From Deltaproteobacteria bacterium GWC2_42_11 (lineage in GTDB: Bacteria > Desulfobacterota > GWC2-55-46 > UBA9637 > GWC2-42-11), in the NCBI GenBank assembly GCA_001797495.1, contig MGPS01000070.1, forward strand, positions 15,879 to 79,878: a stretch of 64,000 nt of DNA, written 5' to 3'. Numbering within the stretch: position 1 is the first letter of the stretch; each line of letters starts with the position of its first letter. The translations under genes were made by a program, and so were the position numbers. Under the pieces are notes generated by a model. That model was given only the letters and a program-made list of their open reading frames with translations. It searched no databases and was not told where the DNA came from. Shown piece by piece: positions 2,134-64,000 of this stretch.

Positions 2134-3134
2134 TGAACAATGTTAAATGTTCAGTGTTGAGTGTTCAATGGCTGTGGGTCAAAGGTTTTTTGCCTTTGCT
2201 TTTACTCATAACTCTAAACTCATCACTCATCACTATTCTGGCTGGCTGTGCCTCAAAACAGGTTGATAAGATACCCGCAGTAAAACAGAAAGCAGTTGAT
2301 TTGAATTATGCAGGTGTTAAGTACAGTGATAATTATAATAAGGCACTGAAAAATTTTGAAAGGGCACTTATTATAAATAAAAAGATAGACAATAGAACTG
2401 GGATAGTTGTAAATGAACTTAATATTGCCAGAACATACATTGCAGAGGGCAGGTATGAGACTGCATTCCCATTTATAAAAGAGGCTGTGGATATGGCAGA
2501 ATCAGAAAGTGATGTTTTACTTTTGAGTGAAGCATATGCTACTATTTCTAATTATTATTACCTTAACGGTGATTATAATAAATCACTCAGTTATATTGAA
2601 AAGGGGATTGATATAGATAAACATCATGGCTTATCATCTGTTGGCGGCAAACTGAATCTGAAGGCACTTGTATATAAAGCGACAGGTGAAGCGGATAAAT
2701 CAATGGAGGTAATAAACGAGGCGTTAAAGCAGAATGAGTCAGGCAATAACAGAAGAGGTGTTGCTGACACATACAGGGTGTCAGGGAGTGTGATGTTGTC
2801 AGGAAAGAAGTATGATGATGCTGTGCTGAATTTTGAGAAAGCACTGGCAATAGATAAGGAACTGGCAAGAGGCAGGGCAATAGCACTGGATTTGACAGGA
2901 CTGGCCAATGTATATGTTGGCAAGGGTGAATACAGGAAGGCTATTGATTATCTGAAGAAGGCATATGATGTAAATGCTGCAAACAGTTATAAGGAGAATG
3001 CACTGGCTGATATTGACAGGATTATAGAAACAGCAACATTACTCGGAGATACCAATATTGTCAGGATATTTTCAGAAGAAAGGGAGAGGTTTGTTTCTGA
3101 CAGCAATTTATCTGTTGGCAGAGGTTTAAAGTGA
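2130..3134 (+). CDS. TPR-repeat lipoprotein
   Basis: A signal peptide is followed by the lipobox LAGC. Repeated TPR-like motifs follow (AxxYxxxGxYxKA...). Confidence 0.55.
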   Translation: MMNNVKCSVLSVQWLWVKGFLPLLLLITLNSSLITILAGCASKQVDKIPAVKQKAVDLNYAGVKYSDNYNKALKNFERALIINKKIDNRTGIVVNELNIARTYIAEGRYETAFPFIKEAVDMAESESDVLLLSEAYATISNYYYLNGDYNKSLSYIEKGIDIDKHHGLSSVGGKLNLKALVYKATGEADKSMEVINEALKQNESGNNRRGVADTYRVSGSVMLSGKKYDDAVLNFEKALAIDKELARGRAIALDLTGLANVYVGKGEYRKAIDYLKKAYDVNAANSYKENALADIDRIIETATLLGDTNIVRIFSEERERFVSDSNLSVGRGLK

Positions 3135-3209
3135 AGGTAAGTCTTCTCAGGTCAAACTGCCGGCTAATGTCATAGAGGACATACCTGAAACAGGTATAGA
3201 CTTTAATAC

Positions 3210-3368
3210 ATGCTTACCGATGAGTTCGAAAGGGAACTGATAATAAAGGCACTAGAGAAGGCAAGGGGTGTAAAAAACAAGGCTGCACAGTTATTGGGTA
3301 TAAACAGGACGACCCTGATAGAAAAGATGAAAAAAAGGGGATGCTTGCATAGCATAAAACCCATCTGA
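3210..3368 (+). CDS. Small stand-alone Fis-family HTH protein (52 aa)
   Basis: The ORF is below the track size cutoff. The sequence MLTDEFERELIIKALEKARGVKNKAAQLLGINRTTLIEKMKKRG is a textbook Fis/NtrC C-terminal HTH_8 motif. A stop lies 2 codons upstream, so the frame cannot extend. Confidence 0.35.
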   Translation: MLTDEFERELIIKALEKARGVKNKAAQLLGINRTTLIEKMKKRGCLHSIKPI

Positions 3369-3535: not shown

Positions 3536-3733
3536 GTGGTGATGGTAGTGGCAATAAAGATTACTCAAGACTGTGTAGCATGCGGCGTTTGTCTGCCTGA
3601 ATGTCCTGTAAATGCCATAACTGAAGGGGAGATATATGTTATAGACCCTTCGGTGTGTGTGGAATGCAAGGGCTATTATGATTCACCCAAGTGCGCTGAA
3701 GTCTGTCCTGTTGATTGCTGTGTACCAGCATAA
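3536..3733 (+). CDS. 2x[4Fe-4S] ferredoxin
   Basis: Two CxxCxxCxxxCP motifs are present (CVACGVCLPECP; CVECKGY...CAEVCP). A GGTGGTG RBS precedes the start. Confidence 0.8.
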   Translation: MVMVVAIKITQDCVACGVCLPECPVNAITEGEIYVIDPSVCVECKGYYDSPKCAEVCPVDCCVPA

Positions 3734-5316: not shown

Positions 5317-6402
5317 GTGAGTCATAACTTTCAAAAAGACATTTCAGGCTGCGGTCTGATTGGTATTATAAATAAAGACCGTACGAGGATAAGCGGGAGT
5401 TTCGTAACTAAATCACTCTGCCTTATGAGGGACAGGGGGAATGGACTTGGCGCTGGTTATGCAGCATACGGCGTGTATCCCAAATATAAAGACCTGTATG
5501 CATTCCATATAATGTATGACGAACCGTCTGCGCAGAGGGATACAGAAGAATATTTAAAGAAAAATTATTATATAGAGAAAAAGGAACCGATGCCGACAGC
5601 GCCTGTGGAGGGTATTAAAATCCACCCCATCCTGTACAGGTATTTTGTAAAGCCTCTGTCAGAAAAGGCTGAAAGGGAATCTGCTGAACTGGAGGACGAC
5701 GACTTCGTTGTAAAGACTGTCATGAAAATAAACTCCGAGATAGATGGCGCATATGTGTTTTCCAGCGGCAAGGATATGGCAGTGTTCAAGGGTGTTGGTA
5801 TGCCAGGTGAGATTGCAAGGTTTTTCAGGATTGACGAATATGAAGGTTATATATGGACAGGACATACGAGGTTTCCGACAAATACTCCCGGCTGGTGGGG
5901 CGGGGCGCACCCGTTTACACTCCTTGACTGGTCGATTGTCCATAACGGGGAGATTTCTTCATACGGTATAAACAAGAGATACCTCGAGATGTATGGTTAT
6001 AAACTCACACTCCTGACAGATACAGAGGTTGTTGCGTATCTTTTTGACCTGCTTGTCAGAAGGCATGGTCTGGATGTGCTAACTGCATGCACAGCACTTG
6101 CAGCACCCTTCTGGAAAAATGTTGATACCATGCATGATGAAGAAAAAGAAGCGATGACCGCTTTAAGGGTGATATACGGGAGTGCATTGCTGAACGGTCC
6201 TTTCTCAATACTCTTCGGGCATAAGAATGGTCTTGTCGGTTTTAATGACAGGATTAAACTGAGGCCCCTTGTCGCTGCGACAAAAGGGAAAACCGTCTAT
6301 ATGGCTAGCGAGGAATCTGCCATAAGGGAGATATGTCCTAGCCCTGAAAAGATATGGTCGCCTAGGGCAGGCGAGCCTGTGATTGTTGAGTTGGAGAGTT
6401 AA
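5317..6402 (+). CDS. Class II glutamine amidotransferase domain protein (archaeal-type glutamate synthase large-subunit domain 1)
   Basis: The GCGLIGI Ntn-hydrolase nucleophile region and a GATase-2 fold pattern are present. A GTG start follows a GGAGG RBS. Confidence 0.7.
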   Translation: MSHNFQKDISGCGLIGIINKDRTRISGSFVTKSLCLMRDRGNGLGAGYAAYGVYPKYKDLYAFHIMYDEPSAQRDTEEYLKKNYYIEKKEPMPTAPVEGIKIHPILYRYFVKPLSEKAERESAELEDDDFVVKTVMKINSEIDGAYVFSSGKDMAVFKGVGMPGEIARFFRIDEYEGYIWTGHTRFPTNTPGWWGGAHPFTLLDWSIVHNGEISSYGINKRYLEMYGYKLTLLTDTEVVAYLFDLLVRRHGLDVLTACTALAAPFWKNVDTMHDEEKEAMTALRVIYGSALLNGPFSILFGHKNGLVGFNDRIKLRPLVAATKGKTVYMASEESAIREICPSPEKIWSPRAGEPVIVELES

Positions 6403-6478
6403 TGAGTTTAGGAGTTAGAGAGTAAAAACTCCTTAACCCCAGAACTCCTCAACTCCTTAACTAATTTTGGAGGTTTAA

Positions 6479-29587: not shown

Positions 29588-29687
29588 GTAAATTGAAGAT
29601 TGGAAGTTGGAAATTTTAAAATGGAATAAAAAGACAATTTGCAATTTAAATTTTACAATTTTCATTTTACAATTAGAGCGAAGCGAC
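29588..29687 (+). repeat. 105-bp duplicated leader element, copy 1 (upstream of mec)
   Basis: Near-identical to 30083-30197. It contains tandem gaagattg/gaaaattg octamers, then ttgcaatttaaattttacaattttcattttacaattagagcgaagcgac ending at the start codon. Confidence 0.7.
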
Positions 29688-29688
29688 C

Positions 29689-30099
29689 ATGCTTTATCTA
29701 TCTAAAGACATATATAACGAGATTATCAGCCATGCTGAGAAATCATACCCTTATGAAGGATGCGGTGTTCTTGTAGGCAGGGATAAGAGGGTTGTGAAGA
29801 TTTGTCCTGTTGAGAACATAAACAAAGACAGGGCAAATGACAGGTATGAGATAGACCCAAAGGATTTGCTCAGGGTTGAGAAAGGGGTGTCCGAAAAAGG
29901 GCTGAATGTCCTTGGGTTTTTTCATTCACATCCTGACCATCCTGATATGCCGTCTGAGTTTGACAGACAAAGGGCATGGCAATTTTATTCGTATATGATT
30001 GTATCTGTGCATAATGGAAAATCTGTTTCAGTAAAATCATGGACATTTGAAGATGAAAATGAACCATTCAGAGAGGAGGAGGTAAAGATTGAAGATTGA
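29689..30099 (+). CDS. mec: JAMM/MPN+ metalloprotease (Mec-like sulfur-carrier peptidase)
   Basis: EGCG...HSHPDHPDMPSEFD JAMM motif. Confidence 0.8.
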   Translation: MLYLSKDIYNEIISHAEKSYPYEGCGVLVGRDKRVVKICPVENINKDRANDRYEIDPKDLLRVEKGVSEKGLNVLGFFHSHPDHPDMPSEFDRQRAWQFYSYMIVSVHNGKSVSVKSWTFEDENEPFREEEVKIED

Positions 30100-30197
30100 A
30101 AATTGAAAATTGGAAATTGGAAATTTTAAAATGGAATAAAAAGACAATTTGCAATTTAAATTTTGCAATTTTCATTTTACAATTAGAGCGAAGCGAC
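30083..30197 (+). repeat. 105-bp duplicated leader element, copy 2 (upstream of E1-like gene)
   Basis: See copy 1. The 5' part overlaps the last codons of mec. Confidence 0.7.
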
Positions 30198-39174: not shown

Positions 39175-40131
39175 ATGTCTTCTTATCCTTTAAGTGTAAT
39201 GCACAACTTCGGCGGTCTGGATGAGAAGGCATCCTCATTCAAAAAGGCAAAGTTTGTTGTCCTGCCTGTTCCGTATGATATGACAGCATCTTATCAGAGC
39301 GGGACAAGAAAAGGTCCGTATGCAATCATTGATGCGTCAACCCATATGGAATTATATAATGAGGAACTGGACATAGAGGCATATAAGGTCGGGATACACA
39401 CAATGCCTTATCTGGAGCCAACCTCAAAAGGTCCTAAGGAGATGGTGGATATTGTTTATGAGGCATCCAGCTATATAGTGAACTTAGATAAAATTCCGGT
39501 TATGCTCGGCGGTGAGCACAGTATAACCCTGGGGCTTGTCAGAGCGCTTAAAAAAAAATATCCGAATATGTCTGTTCTTCAACTGGATGCACATGCAGAC
39601 ATGAGGGATAAATATCAGGAAAGCCCGTATAACCATGCGTGTATTGCAAGGAGAATATCAGAGATGTGTCCGATTGTTCAGGTTGGCATAAGGAGTTTAA
39701 GTGTTGAAGAGGCAGAGTTCTTAAAAAAGGGGTTGGAACACAGAACACAGAAGTCAGAAAAAACGCATCACGCATCACACATCACGCATCACAGTATCCA
39801 TACCTATTTTGCAAAGGATATTATAAGAGGCATCCCTGTAGAGGATATATGCAGTAATCTGACGAATGAAGTTTTTATTACCATTGACCTTGATGTGTTT
39901 GACCCTTCAATTATGCCTGCAACAGGAACCCCTGAACCAGGAGGGTTGATGTGGTATGAAGTGACGGGATTATTGAGGAACATTGCTGCTAAAAAAGAGA
40001 TAATCGGTTTTGATGTGGTTGAGTTGTGCCCGCTGGCAGGTAATTTATCTCCGGATTTCCTTGCTGCAAAACTTGTTTATAAGATGATGGGATATATAGT
40101 AAAAGACAAAAAAGCAGACTATAGACTTTAA
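39175..40131 (+). CDS. speB: Agmatinase / arginase-family ureohydrolase
   Basis: Arginase-fold Mn-ligand motifs are present (GGEHSIT, DAHADM, DLDVFDPS). It carries a His-rich insertion encoded by a nucleotide repeat. Confidence 0.8.
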   Translation: MSSYPLSVMHNFGGLDEKASSFKKAKFVVLPVPYDMTASYQSGTRKGPYAIIDASTHMELYNEELDIEAYKVGIHTMPYLEPTSKGPKEMVDIVYEASSYIVNLDKIPVMLGGEHSITLGLVRALKKKYPNMSVLQLDAHADMRDKYQESPYNHACIARRISEMCPIVQVGIRSLSVEEAEFLKKGLEHRTQKSEKTHHASHITHHSIHTYFAKDIIRGIPVEDICSNLTNEVFITIDLDVFDPSIMPATGTPEPGGLMWYEVTGLLRNIAAKKEIIGFDVVELCPLAGNLSPDFLAAKLVYKMMGYIVKDKKADYRL

Positions 40132-56789: not shown

Positions 56790-58072
56790 GTAAACTTCTA
56801 ATAAAAGGCGGGCATGTTGTTGACCCTGCAAATGGGATTGACGGGATATTTGATGTTTATTGTGTTGACGGCAAAATCGTTGAAATCACGCATCACGCAT
56901 CCCGCATCACGCACAACGATTGCACTGTCATAGATGCAACGGGTCTTCATGTTTTCCCGGGTTTTATTGACATGCACACGCATTTAAGAGAGCCGGGCTA
57001 TGAATATAAAGAGGACATAAGAACAGGCACAATGGCAGCAGCAGCAGGAGGTTTTACATCTGTTGCATGTATGGCAAATACTGACCCTGTTAATGACAAT
57101 TCATCTGTTACAAGATATATCCTGAAAAAGGCACAGGAAGAGGGTATTGTAAATGTCTTTCCTGTTGGTGCAGTAAGTAAAGGTTTAAAAGGTGAGATAC
57201 TTGCAGAGATTAGCGATTTGAAAGATGCGGGATGTGTTGCGATTTCAGATGACGGCAAGCCTGTTTCTGACAGCAGGTTGATGAGGCTGGCACTGGAATA
57301 TTCAAAACCTTTTAATCTGCCTGTTATATCCCACTGCGAGGATTTAACCCTTGCAGGGGATGGTGTTATGAACGAAGGTTTTATTTCTACAAAACTGGGT
57401 TTAAAGGGCATCCCGAATGCAGCAGAGGATATTATGGTTGCAAGGGATATTGCCCTTGCAGAACTTACACACGGGAAACTGCACATTGCCCATGTATCTG
57501 CATCTGGGAGTGTTGAACTTATAAGAAATGCCAAGTCAAGAGGTGTAAATGTTACAGCAGAGGTTACGCCGCACCACTTTACACTAACAGATGAATGTGT
57601 AACCGGCTACAACACCAATGCAAAGATGAACCCTCCGCTTCGCAGTATTAGTGATATAGAGGCATTGAAACAGGGGCTTAAACACGGAACAATAGATGTC
57701 ATTGCAACAGACCATGCACCACAGAATGCTGATGAAAAGGATGTGGAATTTGATAAGGCAGCAAACGGTGTTGTTGGACTTGAGACTGCATTCTCACTTT
57801 CTTTAAAACTCGTTTCAGACGGGCTTATTTCATTATCTGTCCTGATTGAAAAAATCTCTCTAAACCCTTCAAGGATTTTAGGGCTTGATAAAAAAGGCTC
57901 TCTAAAAGTCGGCAATGATGCTGATATAACGATTGTGGATTTAAATAAGGAATGGTTTGTTGATGTAAATAAATTAAAATCAAAGAGCAAAAATACTCCG
58001 TTTGAAAACTGGAAGATGAAAGGTAAAGTTGTGAAGACAATAGTTGGAGGGAAGGTGGTGTATGAGGGATAG
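56786..58072 (+). CDS. pyrC: Dihydroorotase (multifunctional-complex type)
   Basis: [10 protein letters not shown] metal-binding motif. It contains an in-frame CATCACGCATCACGCATC repeat coding [10 protein letters not shown]. Confidence 0.85.
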
Positions 58073-59240
58073 GAATAAGGCAGTCCTTGCACTTGCAGAC
58101 GGCACTGTATTTGAAGGTTATTCATTCGGCGCTGAAGGTGAGTCAATAGGTGAGGTAGTTTTCAATACCTCAATGACAGGGTATCAGGAAATTTTAACTG
58201 ACCCGTCTTATAAAGGACAGATTGTTACAATGACCTATACCCAGATTGGAAATTACGGGATAAATAGTGAGGATATTGAATCAGCAAGACCATGGATTGA
58301 AGGATTTATTGTAAAGGAATTTTGCCAATATCCAAGCAACTGGCGTTCAAAAGAGACTCTGGATAGTTATCTAAAAAGGCACAATATTGTTGGGATACAC
58401 GGAATAGATACAAGGGCTTTGACAAAGCATTTAAGGGATAATGGCGCTATGAATGGGGTTATATCAACTGTTGATTTGGACCCAGAAAGACTTGTTAAAA
58501 AGGCAAAGGGATTTCCATCCATGGCAGGGCTTGACCTTGCAAAAGAGGTAACATGCAAAGAGCCATATAAATTGAAGCAGGGTTTGTGGAATATAGAAAG
58601 AGGTTACTCATCACTCAGCACTCATCACTCGCCACTCTATAAGGTGGTTGCATATGACTTTGGCATAAAATACAACATCCTCCGAAACCTTGTTAATGTC
58701 GGGTGTGATGTTACAGTTGTGCCTGCATGGACATCTGCTGATGATGTTTTGAAGATGAACCCGGACGGCGTATTCCTTTCAAATGGCCCCGGCGACCCTG
58801 ATGCAGTTAAATACGCAATTGAGAATGTGAGAAAACTCATTGGCAAAAAACCAATATTTGGAATCTGTCTCGGACATCAGATACTTGGGCTTGCTCTTGG
58901 CGGAAAGACATATAAACTAAAATTCGGTCATCGCGGGGGCAATCAGCCTGTTATGGATTTAACAACAAGAAAGGTTGAGATTACATCCCAGAATCACGGC
59001 TTTGCAGTTGATGTTAATTCTTTAAAAGGCATTGCTGAACTTACACATATAAACCTAAATGACAAAACAGTTGAAGGGCTTGCACACAAAAAACTACCGC
59101 TATTTTCTGTCCAGTATCATCCAGAGGCATCGCCAGGTCCGCATGATGCAAGTTATCTTTTCAAAAGGTTTGTGGATTTGATGGAGGGTAAATGGTCATT
59201 GAATTTAAGCCTTTCAATGCAGGCTTTGAAGAATGCTTAA
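58062..59240 (+). CDS. carA: Carbamoyl-phosphate synthase small subunit
   Basis: Class I GATase triad region (GICLGHQ). It contains an in-frame CTCATCACTCAGCACTCATCAC repeat. Confidence 0.85.
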
Positions 59241-59845
59241 AAGAGTTTAAAGACTATTTTATAAATGAGACATTTGCCGAAGAGATAAAACTTGCAAAAG
59301 AAGAATTTACAAATTCTGGCATAGATTTAAATGAGGGTGAGAATTATGAGGAAAGGCTTAGTATATTTTTTGACTGGTATCTGTTTGACAGACCATTGTC
59401 AGATACAAATCTAACCCCTGTCAGATATTTTGTTGAAACCCTTTCAAACAAAGGAGATATATACGATGGATTTTCAAAAACCATACAAAGCATATTTGTT
59501 ATAAAGCGGAGGGGTATTGGATATGTAAAGGTAAAGGATATGTTTACAAGAAAAAAATATATAGTGAATGGCGATAATCTTATAGGTTTTGAAAAGAGGG
59601 ATATAATGGAGGCAAGGCTTATCCCGTTTGAGAGGTCTTACAGATTTTCAGAGACATTCTGTTTTTATCCTGATGATATAAAGACTATGCTGAAAAAAGA
59701 GATAAAAGAGGCAAAAAAACAGGAAGAGGCAGACTTTTATCCTGTTTTATTAAAGTTTAGAAGATTAAAAACCATGTCAGAGAGATTTACAAGGATGGAT
59801 ATAAAAAAGGTTTATACCTTAATGGAGGAAGGATTGCTTGCCTAA
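59192..59845 (+). CDS. Hypothetical protein encoded between carA and carB
   Basis: A 217-aa ORF with no recognisable domain. It overlaps the carA 3' end by ~49 nt and its stop overlaps the carB start. Confidence 0.35.
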
Positions 59846-62800
59846 ACGAACTGACATAAAAAAAATACTCATCATCGGCGCGGGACCTATTGTCATAGGC
59901 CAGGCATGCGAGTTTGACTATTCAGGCACGCAGGCGTGCAAGGCTCTAAAAGAAGAGGGTTATAAGGTCATCCTCATCAACTCAAACCCTGCGACCATTA
60001 TGACTGACCCGGAGATTGCTGACAGGACATATATTGAGCCGATTACGCCTGAAATAGTTGAAAAAATCATTGAGAAGGAAAGACCTGATGCAATCCTTCC
60101 GACTATGGGCGGACAGACCGCGCTCAATACAGCGGTGGCTCTGGCGGAATCCGGCGTTTTGGAAAAATATCATGTTGAGCTCATCGGCGCTAAACTCCAT
60201 GCAATAAAAAAGGCAGAAGACAGGGAACTCTTTAAAGAGGCAATGGAAAGGATTGGTCTTGAGGTGCCAAGAAGCGGTTATGCAAAGACCCTGACAGATG
60301 CAATGAGTATAATGGAGACCATGGATTATCCTGCAATCATAAGGCCATCTTTTACACTCGGCGGCACAGGCGGCGGTATCGCATATAACAGCGAGGAATT
60401 TAAGGACATGGTTCAGTATGGACTGGATGCAAGCCCGTATAGCGAAATCCTCATTGAAGAATCTGTAATAGGCTGGAAGGAATATGAACTGGAGGTTATG
60501 AGGGATGGTAAGGACAATGTTGTTATTATCTGTTCAATAGAGAATTTTGACCCTATGGGAGTCCATACAGGGGATTCCATAACTGTTGCGCCTGCCCAGA
60601 CATTAACAGATAAGGAATATCAGATAATGAGGGATGCGGCACTCAAGATTATAAGGGAAATCGGTGTTGATACAGGAGGCTCAAACATCCAATTTTCTGT
60701 TAATCCTCAAAATGGGAAGATGCATGTGATTGAGATGAACCCCAGGGTTTCCCGCTCATCTGCACTTGCAAGCAAGGCAACCGGTTTTCCTATTGCAAAG
60801 ATTGCCGCAAAACTTGCGGTAGGATATACGCTTGATGAGATTCCCAATGACATAACAAAAAAGACACCTGCCTCATTTGAGCCGACAATTGACTATGTGG
60901 TCACAAAGGTTCCGAGGTTTACATTTGAAAAATTTCCTGAGGCGGATGCTATACTCACAACACAGATGAAGTCTGTGGGAGAGGTAATGGCAATAGGAAG
61001 GACATTTAAAGAGTCTTTACAGAAGGCACTCAGGTCGCTTGAGATAGGGAGTTATGGGTTTGAAGAAAGGGTTCAAGGGGTCGGGGGTTCAAGGGTTAAG
61101 GAAGAGATTACTGAAAAACTCAGGACACCTAATTGGGAGAGGCTTTGGTATATTGCAGATGCCTTCAGAGCAGGCATGACTGTTGATGAGATATTTGATT
61201 TATCAAAGGTTGACAGGTGGTTTCTGAATAATATAAGGGAGATTGTGGAGTTTGAGAGTGAGTTAGAGAGTTTAGGAGTAAAAGAAAAGACAGTTAAGGA
61301 GTCAACTCCTCAACTCCTCAACTCATTACGGCAGGCAAAAGAACTTGGATTTTCTGACAAACGGATAGCACAGTTATCAGGTAAAACCGAAGCAGAAATA
61401 AGAGAGGCGAGAAAACAGGCAGGGGTTGAGCCTGTATATAAGACAGTTGATACATGCGGCGCAGAGTTTGAGGCATATACACCGTATCTGTATTCTGCAT
61501 ATGAAAAACCATTTTATAGCATAGAGCATGGAGCAGAGAGCAAAGAGCAAAAGAAATATCCCTATGCCCTATGCCCTATGCCCTATGCGCTTACTGTTGC
61601 TTGTGAATCCAACCCCACCACCCGCAAAAAAGTCATAATCCTCGGCAGTGGTCCCAATAGAATCGGTCAGGGCATTGAGTTTGATTACTGCTGTGTCCAT
61701 GCAGCATTTGCATTAAAGGAAGATGGCATCGAGACCATAATGGTAAACTGCAATCCTGAGACAGTATCAACTGATTATGACACTTCTGACAGGCTCTATT
61801 TCGAACCCCTCACATTTGAAGATGTTATGAACATAATTGAAAAGGAGAAACCTTTTGGCGTTATTGTCCAGTTCGGCGGGCAGACGCCTTTAAAACTTGC
61901 AGTGTCTCTGGAAAAGGCTGGAGTAAAAATCCTCGGCACATCGCCTGATTCCATTGATATCGCAGAAGACAGGGAAAGGTTTGACAAACTCCTCACAAAA
62001 CTAAATCTAAAAAGACCTGAAAGCGGCATTGCCCGTTCAATTGATGAGGCAATAAAGGTTGCAAATAAAATTGGGTATCCTGTTATGGTAAGACCTTCCT
62101 ATGTACTCGGCGGAAGGGCGATGGAGATAGTCTATACAGAGGAGAGTTTAAAGGACTACATGAAAAGGGCTGTTGAGGCATCCCCTGAACACCCTGTCCT
62201 GATTGATAAATTTTTAAACAATGCAACAGAGGTGGATGTTGACTGCGTTTCTGATGGTAAGGATATTGTTATTGGTGGTATTATGGAGCATATTGAAGAG
62301 GCAGGCATACATTCAGGTGATTCGGCATGCTCAATACCGCCGTATTCTCTTGATTTAAATATCATTGATGAGATAAGAAGGCAGACAATTTTGCTTGCAA
62401 AAGAATTAAATGTAATAGGACTAATGAATGTCCAGTTTGCAGTGAAAAAAAATCCCCCCATCCCCCCCTTTGAAAAAGGGGAGATTGAGGGGGGATTAAA
62501 CAAGGGGCAAGGGTCAGAAATATATGTTCTTGAGGTTAACCCAAGGGCATCAAGGACTGTTCCATTTGTAAGCAAGGCAATAGGAAAACCCCTTGCAAAG
62601 ATTGCTGCAAAGGTTATGGCAGGTAAGACCCTTAAGGAATTAGATTTCACAAAAGAGATTGTGCCAGGGCATATTTCTGTAAAGGAATCTGTCTTTCCAT
62701 TTATAAAATTTCCGGGTGTTGATACGATCCTTGGTCCTGAGATGAAGTCAACAGGAGAGGTAATGGGCATAGATAAAGATTTCGGCAGGGCATTTGCAAA

Positions 62801-63266
62801 GGCACAGATTGCAGCAGGGACAAAACTGCCACCCCCACCTTTATCCTCCCCCTTAAAGGGGGAGGGGAGGGGAGGGGGCAAGGTTTTTATAAGCGTAAAA
62901 GATGAGGATAAACAAGAGGCCATATCAGCGGCAAAACGGCTGAGGGAGATGGGCTTTGAGATAGTTGCTACAAGCGGTACAGGAAAATATTTAAAAGATA
63001 ATGGGGTTGATACAGAGTTTGTATATAAGGTTGGAGAGGGAAGGCCGCATATAGTGGATAAGATAAAAAGCGGCGATATTGCTATGGTTATAAATACTTC
63101 ATTTGGTGCAAAGGCAGTTAAGGATTCCTTTTCAATAAGAAGGTCAGCGCTTGTCTATGGTGTGCCTTATTTTACAACGATTTCAGGCGCAAAGGCAGCA
63201 AGCCTTGGTATAGAGGCACTCATAAAAGAGGGCATGGGAGTAAAGCCGCTGCAGGAATACAATTAA
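59838..63266 (+). CDS. carB: Carbamoyl-phosphate synthase large subunit (with several short in-frame insertions)
   Basis: Two ATP-grasp halves and an MGS-like domain are present. It is collinear with E. coli CarB except for insertions at 61559-61586, 62446-62515 and 62844-62865. Confidence 0.9.
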
Positions 63267-63390
63267 GTTCGTAAAGTTAATAATGTTAAAAGTTATTAAA
63301 ACTTTCTGCGGGAGCAGGTTTGTAACCTGCTCCTCTATGGGTTCAGGTTGCAAACCTGAACCCGCATTAGAACCTGAACCCGCATTAGGT

Positions 63391-63425
63391 CAAGGGTCAT
63401 GAGAGAACTTGCCCCTTGTTTTTGG
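63391..63425 (+). terminator. Rho-independent terminator after carB, preceded by two perfect stem-loops
   Basis: caaggg...cccttg stem followed by ttttt. The upstream hairpins are ggagcaggtttgtaacctgctcc and gggttcaggttgcaaacctgaaccc. Confidence 0.45.
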
Positions 63426-63452
63426 CATAGAGTTTGCTACTAAATTAAAAGC

Positions 63453-64000
63453 ATGAGGCACAAGATTTTCAAAGTTTCTCTATTTTTCATCTTTTCCCTA
63501 ATCCCTATTACCTATCACCTATCGCCCGCCTTTTCCCAAGACCGTCTTACCCTCGGCATTGTCCCGTTCCAGAGCCCCTCTAAGACAGCAGAGATGTTTA
63601 TACCTCTTGTGAATTATCTCACTGAAAAAACAGGTATAAAGATTGATTTTGCAGTTGCCAGAGACTTTAAGATATATCAGGAGAGAATGGAAAGGGGAGA
63701 ATATGACATAACATTTTCAAACCCATTTCAGTATATTGCTGCAAACAGCAGGGCAGGGTATAAGGCATTTGCAAAGGTGGCGGGAGAACCTTTTACAGGT
63801 ATAATCCTTGTCAGAAATGATTCAGGTATAAAAAGGATTGAGGACTTAAAAGGCAAGACAATTGCATTTGCATACCCAACTGCATGGGCTGCTGCTGTTC
63901 AGACAAGGAAATGGCTGGAGGATAAATACAGCATTGATTATTACAGGGATATGAAACCGCTGTTTGTTACCTCTCATGATTCTGCAATTCTGTCTGTATA
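63453..64000 (+). CDS. PhnD/SsuA-like ABC transporter substrate-binding protein, N-terminal part (runs off the window)
   Basis: A signal peptide is followed by LTLGIVPFQSP...DITFSNPFQY, as in phosphonate-binding proteins. Confidence 0.55.
   Translation, partial: MRHKIFKVSLFFIFSLIPITYHLSPAFSQDRLTLGIVPFQSPSKTAEMFIPLVNYLTEKTGIKIDFAVARDFKIYQERMERGEYDITFSNPFQYIAANSRAGYKAFAKVAGEPFTGIILVRNDSGIKRIEDLKGKTIAFAYPTAWAAAVQTRKWLEDKYSIDYYRDMKPLFVTSHDSAILSV

Follow-up and report, generated by a model that had tools for sequence, protein, structure and literature searches.

This analysis concerns carB, the gene for the large subunit of carbamoyl-phosphate synthase, in a 64,000-nucleotide stretch of DNA from Deltaproteobacteria bacterium GWC2_42_11 (contig MGPS01000070.1; hereafter the window, to whose first letter all positions refer), and five short repeat cassettes that lie in frame within its coding sequence. 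The encoded protein of 1142 aa aligns end to end with Escherichia coli CarB (1073 aa, PDB 1bxr_A; E = 0, 1417 bits, residues 1-1128) and contains two ATP-grasp halves, an oligomerization domain and a C-terminal, methylglyoxal synthase (MGS)-like allosteric domain, in agreement with its Pfam record (CPSase_L_D1/D2/D3 and MGS). Upstream of it lie, in order, pyrC, carA and a small conserved DUF7986 gene. The same 1142-aa protein was found identical on 4 contigs, one of them from the metagenome-assembled genome (MAG) GCA_003532155.1, and its closest relatives come from groundwater and sediment MAGs labelled 'Deltaproteobacteria bacterium'. The relatives compared at the DNA level were L002, L003 (GCA_016219285.1), L004, L005, L245, L246 (GCA_001798355.1) and L247. 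The gene as an open reading frame (ORF) and its cassettes, which are numbered as sites 1, 2, 3, 5 and 6, are as follows.

59838-63266, + strand: carB (carbamoyl-phosphate synthase large subunit), ORF of 1142 aa, host of the five repeat cassettes
61067-61101, + strand: site 1 cassette, tandem octamer AAGGGTTC in 4.5 copies (Tandem Repeats Finder, TRF), encoding 11 residues at the start of the oligomerization domain
61248-61325, + strand: site 2 cassette, octamer-armed hairpin (arms 61259-61279 / 61305-61325) within the oligomerization domain; 20 encoded residues cited
61508-61590, + strand: site 3 cassette, heptamer-armed hairpin at the junction of the oligomerization domain and the second ATP-grasp half; 25 encoded residues cited
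62451-62513, + strand: site 5 cassette, nested G/C-run palindrome with a G-rich tail, encoding 21 residues at the tip of a beta-hairpin in the second ATP-grasp domain
62829-62878, + strand: site 6 cassette, double-stem GC palindrome, encoding 16 residues at the junction with the allosteric (MGS-like) domain

Each cassette measures 35-85 nt, four of the five contain imperfect inverted repeats, and three fold better than shuffled sequences (DNA fold z -2.1 to -2.7). The first-pass annotation of this stretch had described three short in-frame insertions in carB; all of the features it described are present, displaced by 1-5 nt at most and none of them expected by chance, but the cassettes number five. 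The site 1 cassette is a swap of a variable loop without net lengthening, forms no hairpin (DNA fold z = -0.24) and occupies a segment that is different in every relative. In site 2, a left arm of the GAGTTAGA type (61259-61279) pairs with a right arm of CAACTCCT in 2.9 copies (61305-61325; TRF) at 81% complementarity (inverted repeat I4), and here the protein is 8 to 10 aa longer than in E. coli and most relatives. The right arm corresponds to an octamer repeat, CAACTCCTCAACTCCTCAACTC (61303-61324), for which a match between 61302-61325 and an intergenic repeat at 6440-6462 had been proposed; the match is genuine, as it extends over 61303-61324 and 6442-6463 with 3 mismatches, where none is expected in shuffles, and blastn returns 95% identity over 20 nt.

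The fourfold ccctatg array read in the first pass at 61559-61586, and credited there with adding 12 aa, is real (4.1 copies of CCCTATG at 61560-61588, 100% matches; TRF), but it is not an insert on its own. It forms only the right arm of the imperfect site 3 hairpin, the left arm of which is a degenerate GCAnAGn array of the complementary heptamer (61519-61545), and the gap relative to E. coli amounts to about 31 aa (query 558-588 against one residue). Together the arms constitute inverted repeat I1 (61519-61545 / 61562-61588; 78% complementary; fold z = -2.46). For the nested palindrome said to add some 21 aa at 62446-62515, the description proved accurate: at 62451-62497 we find AATCCCCCC-AT-CCCCCCCTTTGAAAAAGGGG-AGATTGA-GGGGGGATT (inverted repeat I6; 0 matches expected in shuffles; fold z = -2.12), bounded by perfect 9-nt termini, AATCCCCCC and GGGGGGATT, and matching a 21-aa gap in the E. 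coli alignment. Likewise, the perfect palindrome placed before the MGS-like domain at 62844-62865 is present 1 nt away, at 62845-62865, as a 21-mer core, CCTCCCCCTTAAAGGGGGAGG (0 expected by chance), within 23-nt arms (62832-62854 / 62856-62878; inverted repeat I3; fold z = -2.66). Site 6 also contains GGGGA in 3.8 copies (TRF), and 13 aa of it are missing from most relatives. The window around these two GC palindromes has a GC content of 41% and is moderately, not strongly, AT-rich. Runs of at least 5 C or G number 39 in the window vs. 43 +/- 7 in shuffles, with 7 of the 39 inside the two carB palindromes, and on these counts a window-wide enrichment of G/C runs was rejected. The right arm of site 6, GGGGGAGGGGAGGGGAGGGGG (62858-62878), additionally presents four sense-strand G-runs separated by 1-nt loops, a canonical G-quadruplex-type motif that lies within an essential ORF and may compete with the hairpin.

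None of the five cassettes shifts the reading frame or introduces a stop, and in sites 2 and 3 the frame in use is the only one of the six that is open. The complement of a perfect (CCCTATG)n array carries an in-frame TAG every 21 nt; in the left arm of site 3, the unit in the TAG phase reads GCAGAGA, with GAG instead of TAG, and so departs from the repeat exactly at the would-be stop. More generally, long intragenic heptamer arrays consist of units that are stop-free in all three phases, while the intergenic families contain stops. Constraints on frame, on stops and on length, which changes in 21-nt steps, are expected only if ribosomes read through, and they argue against an element that is excised or bypassed; judging from the reading frame, the cassettes appear to be translated, and they are presumably harmless. 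Inteins were rejected on account of size.

The positions of the cassettes in the protein are those at which additional residues would be expected to be tolerated. In E. coli numbering, site 3 falls at 549/551, site 5 between 835 and 836, and site 6 just after 936. Considering that the domain limits of E. coli CarB lie at 552/553 (oligomerization/carbamate-phosphorylation) and at 933 (carbamate-phosphorylation/allosteric; PMC6245113), sites 3 and 6 coincide with the limits at 552/553 and about 933-937, and sites 1 and 2 are located inside the oligomerization domain. In an AlphaFold2 model of the window CarB (predicted TM score, pTM, 0.81), residues 571-580, 875-890 and 1003-1012, which are the cores of cassettes 3, 5 and 6, are modelled as coil with a predicted local distance difference test (pLDDT) score below 50, and strands 860-871 and 893-901 form a beta-hairpin that has site 5 at its tip. 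Across 120 homologues, the five cassette positions are the length-variable ones, with median lengths of 5 aa at site 5 and 6 aa at site 6, against 26 and 19 aa here. The cassettes thus occupy positions that the model and the alignments depict as permissive, namely domain junctions or loop tips. This agrees with the original suggestion of hairpin mini-elements tolerated in surface loops, as does the fact that relatives lack or vary the inserts and that the families recur in the window and among relatives. Close relatives without these inserts, or with different ones, do exist, and the positions are junctions and a loop tip in modelled coil, so that neither of the observations named beforehand as refuting the suggestion, a lack of such relatives or placement in buried positions, applies.

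Comparison of the relatives showed that the cassettes turn over faster than the backbone of the gene and faster than its synonymous positions diverge. The carB genes of L004 and L245 are 96.4% identical in DNA, yet the site-3 segment between ...GAGAAACCAT and TGCGAAGCA... is wholly different, being the CCCTATG hairpin in L004 and (GAAGTCA)n in L245. Similarly, L002, L246 and L247, whose carB genes are 94-95.5% identical, have a different, unrelated cassette apiece at site 2 and again at site 3, and at site 5 they differ by a length step of exactly 21 nt, or 3 x AAGTCAG. When the cassettes are masked, the homologue P0006 is almost identical to P0010 and P0012-15. The distribution of the cassettes is incongruent with the backbone tree. 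In the window, 59/63 nt of site 2 are identical to site 2 of L002, site 3 is 94% identical to that of L004 over 70 nt, including the non-repetitive loop, and site 6 shares 47/51 nt with L003, in carB backbones that are 78-81% identical to the window (51-57% at third-codon positions). The excess identity is limited to the cassette, with flanks at background, and because it stops at the cassette edges, short recombination tracts between orthologues are not a sufficient explanation.

The same sequences also change places. In L002 one element is found at both site 2 and site 3 of carB, and in more distant CarBs related peptide motifs occur at other sites, such as SPLEGEGNGGGG, which P0057 has at site 5. 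In carA, one interdomain linker holds five different cassettes in five relatives, and the genes of L246 and L247 are set apart by a hairpin with a GC stem that is nested within a heptamer array. A copy of the site-6 palindrome in L005 retains 32/51 identical positions and folds poorly (z = -1.5 vs. -4.2 to -4.4); as it has largely lost its hairpin, the structure itself does not seem to be under strong selection. Between L004 (4450-4494) and L245 (5860-5919), the last ~15 codons of carB are replaced by unrelated sequence, making the C-terminus a sixth variable position of the gene.

Repeat cassettes are a genome-wide habit and not an oddity of carB. Hairpins whose arms reach at least 14 nt number about 20 in the window and 1-5 in shuffles, and many of these arms consist of tandem 7-9-nt units. 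Exact tandem heptamers number 10 vs. 0.03 expected and octamers 2 vs. 0, with no excess in the window of tandem repeats that have periods of 4, 5 and 9-12. Within these 64 kb, therefore, it is tandem 7-nt units specifically that are over-represented, as is characteristic of heptanucleotide simple sequence repeats (SSRs) of the short tandemly repeated repetitive (STRR) type. Heptamer arrays lie in frame in pyrC, in carA and in the ORFs starting at 2130, 39175 and 41699, and the pyrC and carA arrays fall in segments that differ from solved homologues. Further members of the families, outside the carB coding sequence, are listed below.

6388-6463, + strand: octamer-armed hairpin of the same family as site 2, intergenic, overlapping the stop codon of ORF 5317-6402 (DNA fold z = -4.32)
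56885-56913, + strand: ATCACGC heptamer array, 4.1 copies (TRF), in a variable loop of pyrC; 11 encoded residues
58604-58637, + strand: ACTCATC-type heptamer array (TRF) in the interdomain linker of carA, where four relatives have four other cassettes; 11 encoded residues
63307-63388, + strand: repeat hairpin 41 nt 3' of the carB stop (arms 63307-63329 / 63344-63366), in a position like that of repetitive extragenic palindromes (REPs); no T-run

The pyrC loop with the ATCACGC array is 3 aa longer than in the Aquifex dihydroorotase (3d6n), and its unit recurs, given there as ACGCATC, at 39763-39792 in ORF 39175-40131. The hairpin downstream of carB includes an 18-nt direct repeat at 63353-63388. 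Intergenic hairpins follow genes at a downstream distance of between a few and some tens of nucleotides and fold strongly (z = -4.3 and -6.2), and the coding copies of the repeats fold worse than the intergenic ones. Intrinsic terminators were rejected as an identity for the intergenic hairpins, none of which has a T-run. An 84-nt heptamer-armed hairpin (AATTGRA.. / ..ACAATTT) is present in two copies, at 29591-29674 and 30101-30184, which bracket a small ORF (29689-30099) and are both followed by the same AGAGCGAAGCGAC sequence. Arrays of CAATGTT (4.7 copies), ACTCATC (2.4 copies) and CCTATCA (2.9 copies), at 2138-2234 and 63495-63523, lie in the regions for the N-terminal signal peptides of two proteins that are predicted to be exported or to be lipoproteins, so that signal peptides appear to be another tolerated location.

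The gene between carA and carB, encoding 217 aa (59192-59845; PF25948, DUF7986 on record), overlaps both the end of carA and the start of carB, and it is kept at this position in 5/6 relatives fetched, being absent in L003; our own Pfam scan gave no match for it. In L246 (3648-4327; GCA_001798355.1), a HEPN/nucleotidyltransferase gene pair of the toxin-antitoxin type sits between carA and the DUF7986 gene.

Similar sequences extend well beyond these lineages. The 19-nt core of the site-6 palindrome has at least 120 matches across many phyla in species-representative genomes, vs. roughly 4 expected. Among the matches listed, 34 of the 67 examined lie inside ORFs that continue for 60 codons or more to either side of the match, those in ORFs are read in the same two frames as in carB (...SPLKGE... 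or ...LPLKGG...), and in MAGs of Nitrospirae, Omnitrophota and Actinomycetota the core is the inner stem of a site-6-like double-stem palindrome; other contigs of the source MAG are not represented among them. The GC palindromes in the loci of the relatives, three in L005 and one in L003, are all inside ORFs. A metagenome scan with (CCCTATG)3 was unspecific (at least 119 contigs), and among the matches listed the whole hairpin cassette was present only in L004. Viral contigs gave 2 matches to the palindrome core and another 2 to the octamer array, and with so few a phage vector is without evidence. A literature search for the encoded peptide motifs (SPLKGE, PPFEKGG and similar) returned no papers.

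In rumen Bacteroidales (MAGs of Bacteroidaceae and Prevotellaceae, among the matches listed), the core belongs to a multi-copy element of ~80-100 nt bounded by terminal inverted repeats (TIRs) and resembling a MITE (a miniature transposable element with inverted repeats). Its bounds are AGACCCTCTCTAA and GGGTCT, and it contains a second internal palindrome, CTCCCTCCCTTTAAGGGAGGG; examples are L031:3362, L104:3338, L019:4983 and L102:2424 (set L006-L125). It often lies in very long ORFs, where it reads ..QTLSNSPLKGE..LPLREGWG.., and is apparently an in-frame MITE-like family in another phylum. In L127, an unrelated metagenome contig of 51% GC, long degenerating GCAnAGn heptamer arrays occur between genes (2490-2560 and 3560-3660), and ORFs ending in repeat-encoded tails (TNKTNKTNETNETNE.., DTMDTMDT; 430-918 and 2834-3310) indicate that heptamer arrays invade ORF ends in other lineages too.

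Cumulatively, our findings suggest that the inserts are probably REP/MITE-like selfish hairpin repeats together with slippage-prone heptamer arrays, which pass a selective filter on frame, stops and position and are translated. We propose that small, non-coding, hairpin-forming repeat DNA landed in, or was copied into, permissive positions of carB in two architectures, that is, as hairpins or arrays of tandem 7-8-nt units and as double-stem G/C-run palindromes. Two processes act on the DNA, each with direct support from the comparisons: replication slippage resizes the arrays, with only steps of three heptamers (21 nt) surviving in genes, and whole cassettes move between sites and between genomes or take each other's place at a given position. 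Selection on an essential enzyme would serve as a filter only, the survivors being those that are a multiple of three in length, stop-free in frame and situated at linkers or loop tips, where they would be translated into disordered low-complexity loops and their hairpins would decay with age. The build and placement of the cassettes, the filter on frame, their membership of repeat families, an exchange that outpaces the backbone and the slippage step are all directly shown by the sequences. With regard to the mobilising mechanism, which we infer, the candidate movers are a RAYT-like (REP-associated tyrosine transposase) HUH enzyme that would work on hairpins in single-stranded DNA, an insertion process aimed at repeats already in place, and ectopic gene conversion or template switching, both of these being possible contributors.

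The best lead for a mobilising enzyme, a candidate by its sequence, is encoded directly upstream of carB in L003 (9170-9945; GCA_016219285.1), in the position that carA-DUF7986 has upstream of carB in the other relatives examined. This RAYT-like Y1 transposase gene (236 aa; PF01797) scores 75 bits against NF047646, below the cutoff of 80, and is flanked by a 14-nt inverted pair without mismatches, AAAGGGGACGGTTC / GAACCGTCCCCTTT, that differs by a single base from the TIR motif GGGGWSAS (PMC3733652).

Several observations weigh against the selfish-repeat explanation. A tblastn search with the L003 Y1 query found no Y1 transposase in the 64-kb window, from which the L003 TIR is absent as well, and for the cassettes we found no transposase, no conserved terminal tag (GTAG or CGTC) and no parent insertion sequence of the kind from which a MITE derives. 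No target-site duplication was visible by eye at filled-vs.-empty or swapped junctions. Within the 64 kb, a second copy exists neither for the GC palindromes nor for the site-3 hairpin, and multi-copy status is hence demonstrated here for the octamer and heptamer families only. Translation of the cassettes is read from frame conservation and not from observation, and matches consisting of complete ORFs form a sample with ascertainment bias, since an allele out of frame would not be seen as full-length CarB. Finally, rapid evolution of arrays in situ, or short gene-conversion tracts between co-occurring strains, could also produce replacement at the same codons.

A bolder form of the proposal, which we hold only tentatively and consider rather unlikely, is a so far undescribed process of insertion and replacement that targets hairpins or repeats and in which existing cassettes act as landing pads. 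It would create persistent, fast-evolving sites at fixed codons of housekeeping genes (carB, carA and others) in Deltaproteobacteria and Nitrospirota-type lineages, with heptamer-armed hairpins and the cross-phylum G/C-run palindromes as substrates, and might be driven by a RAYT/TIRYT-like HUH enzyme.

The repeats could instead have originated where they stand, without mobility, if slippage generated arrays in variable linkers and strand-switching (quasi-palindrome) template switching supplied the inverted partners, forming and perfecting hairpins on the spot, so that the cassettes at a site would be fast-diverged descendants of a single ancestral array. Slippage is indeed seen directly in the 21-nt step at site 5, the arms of the hairpins are the same heptamer in opposite orientations, the carA-linker arrays share sub-motifs such as ACTC, and the occurrence of similar degenerate GCAnAGn arrays in the unrelated 51%-GC contig suggests a general mutational process. 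The account fails, however, on the ~94% identity of the window and L004 cassettes, loop included, in backbones that are 79% identical, while the 96% sister of L004 differs, and it leaves unexplained both the single element at two carB sites in L002 and the recurrence of the same palindrome core across phyla. We consider it quite unlikely.

An adaptive role, which we judge very unlikely, would have the hairpins, together with the G-quadruplex-type run of site 6, pause ribosomes for co-translational folding or tune mRNA stability, or would have the peptides serve as flexible linkers. The location of sites 3 and 6 at domain junctions (PMC6245113) fits such a role, although junctions are also simply the places most tolerant of insertion, and so does the finding that cassettes are better conserved than synonymous sites; moreover, the intergenic copies lie at gene 3' ends like REPs, for which an effect on mRNA has been proposed (PMC3733652). 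Yet in close relatives a given site freely swaps one unrelated sequence for another or lacks its content, no hairpin forms at site 1, folding is poorer in coding than in intergenic copies, and the older copy in L005 has lost its hairpin.

It is highly improbable that the inserts are cut from the transcript or skipped by the ribosome and never enter the protein, as the first-pass annotation had considered in suggesting an intervening-sequence-like insertion. Systems of this kind include the GC-rich 'byp' elements of Magnusiomyces mitochondria and the gap of T4 gene 60, to which small GC-rich hairpins in a lower-GC gene bear a superficial likeness. The open and stop-free frames of all five cassettes, unique to the used frame in sites 2 and 3, the substitution at the would-be TAG in site 3, the restriction of intragenic arrays to stop-free units and the 21-nt steps in length all speak against it, and a search of Rfam (E <= 1, 59000-64000) gave no family match, only two sub-threshold eukaryotic snoRNA-type chance matches. 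An assembly or sequencing artefact, whether chimeric joins or mis-assembled repeats, can practically be dismissed, for even though assembly errors classically arise at repeats and hairpins and the sequence comes from a MAG, the exact 1142-aa protein is present on 4 separate contigs and independent assemblies of other samples have homologous cassettes at these codons, with the frame intact throughout.

Among known systems, the cassettes behave most like Rickettsia palindromic elements (RPEs) and intragenic REPs but are members of neither. RPEs (Ogata et al. 2000, 2002, summarised in PMC10969869) are palindromic repeats of about 100-150 bp that lie in frame in unrelated housekeeping genes, encode a conserved peptide and occur in Rickettsia only. 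The carB cassettes resemble RPEs in being palindromic, in frame and at fold-compatible positions, with several families and with copies also between genes. They differ in that they measure 35-85 nt and belong to a MAG of deltaproteobacterial type, a separation based on length and description, and in that their arms are often tandem 7-8-nt units or G/C runs, unrelated families swap at the same codons and slippage resizes them.

REPs are GC-rich palindromes of 20-40 nt found mostly downstream of genes, although some lie in ORFs, where dimers encode 20-30 aa (PMC3733652), sometimes twice per gene or at the same site in related species (PMC3733652; Di Nocera et al. 2013). Like them, sites 5 and 6 are short, GC-rich, imperfect palindromes, and intergenic copies lie downstream of genes. 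Unlike the REPs of the GTAG/CGTC super-families, 62451-62513 and 62829-62878 do not end in GTAG/CGTC or the complement, and heptamer-armed hairpins are not part of the REP description. In a REPtron, a cognate RAYT gene is flanked by the repeats themselves; L003 has a RAYT-like gene with flanking inverted repeats, and the window has neither a RAYT nor that TIR. REPs number tens to hundreds per genome; in the 64 kb assessed here, the heptamer- and octamer-armed hairpins are multi-copy and downstream of genes, and the GC palindromes have only two copies, both in carB.

The over-representation that is specific to tandem heptamers, and the tiny, apparently mobile repeats nested in arrays, as in carA of L246, are features shared with STRRs and heptameric SSRs. 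Cyanobacterial heptamer repeats (STRR) and small dispersed repeats were reportedly treated by Elhai et al. in 2008 (as cited in PMC4390886). The heptameric SSRs of Xanthomonas and Nostoc reportedly show under-representation within coding sequence (PMC4692102), in contrast to the present heptamers, which come from another phylum, are in frame in many housekeeping genes and are paired as inverted arrays. The coding palindromes of Nematomorpha mitochondria (PMC6649704) are likewise inverted repeats in translated sequence, where DNA or RNA structure has to be reconciled with the function of the protein; however, they are long and perfect, with both arms encoding conserved protein, whereas the repeats of carB are decaying inserts in non-conserved loops. 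As far as we could find, the literature holds no earlier description of unrelated repeat cassettes being exchanged at fixed codons in near-identical strains.

Selfish palindromic DNA in essential coding genes has so far been known mainly from Rickettsia and from scattered intragenic REPs, and the case of carB indicates that it is common in uncultured subsurface lineages. Strains that are 94-96% identical and carry different cassettes at the same codons constitute clean natural experiments on the tempo of exchange, on the selective filter and on three-heptamer slippage. In practical terms, the cassettes inflate protein lengths, their low-complexity segments confuse annotation and alignment, and they mark insertion-tolerant sites of CarB and CarA that are usable for protein engineering. 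Were a dedicated targeting mechanism to prove true, these cassettes would represent a new kind of very small mobile DNA.

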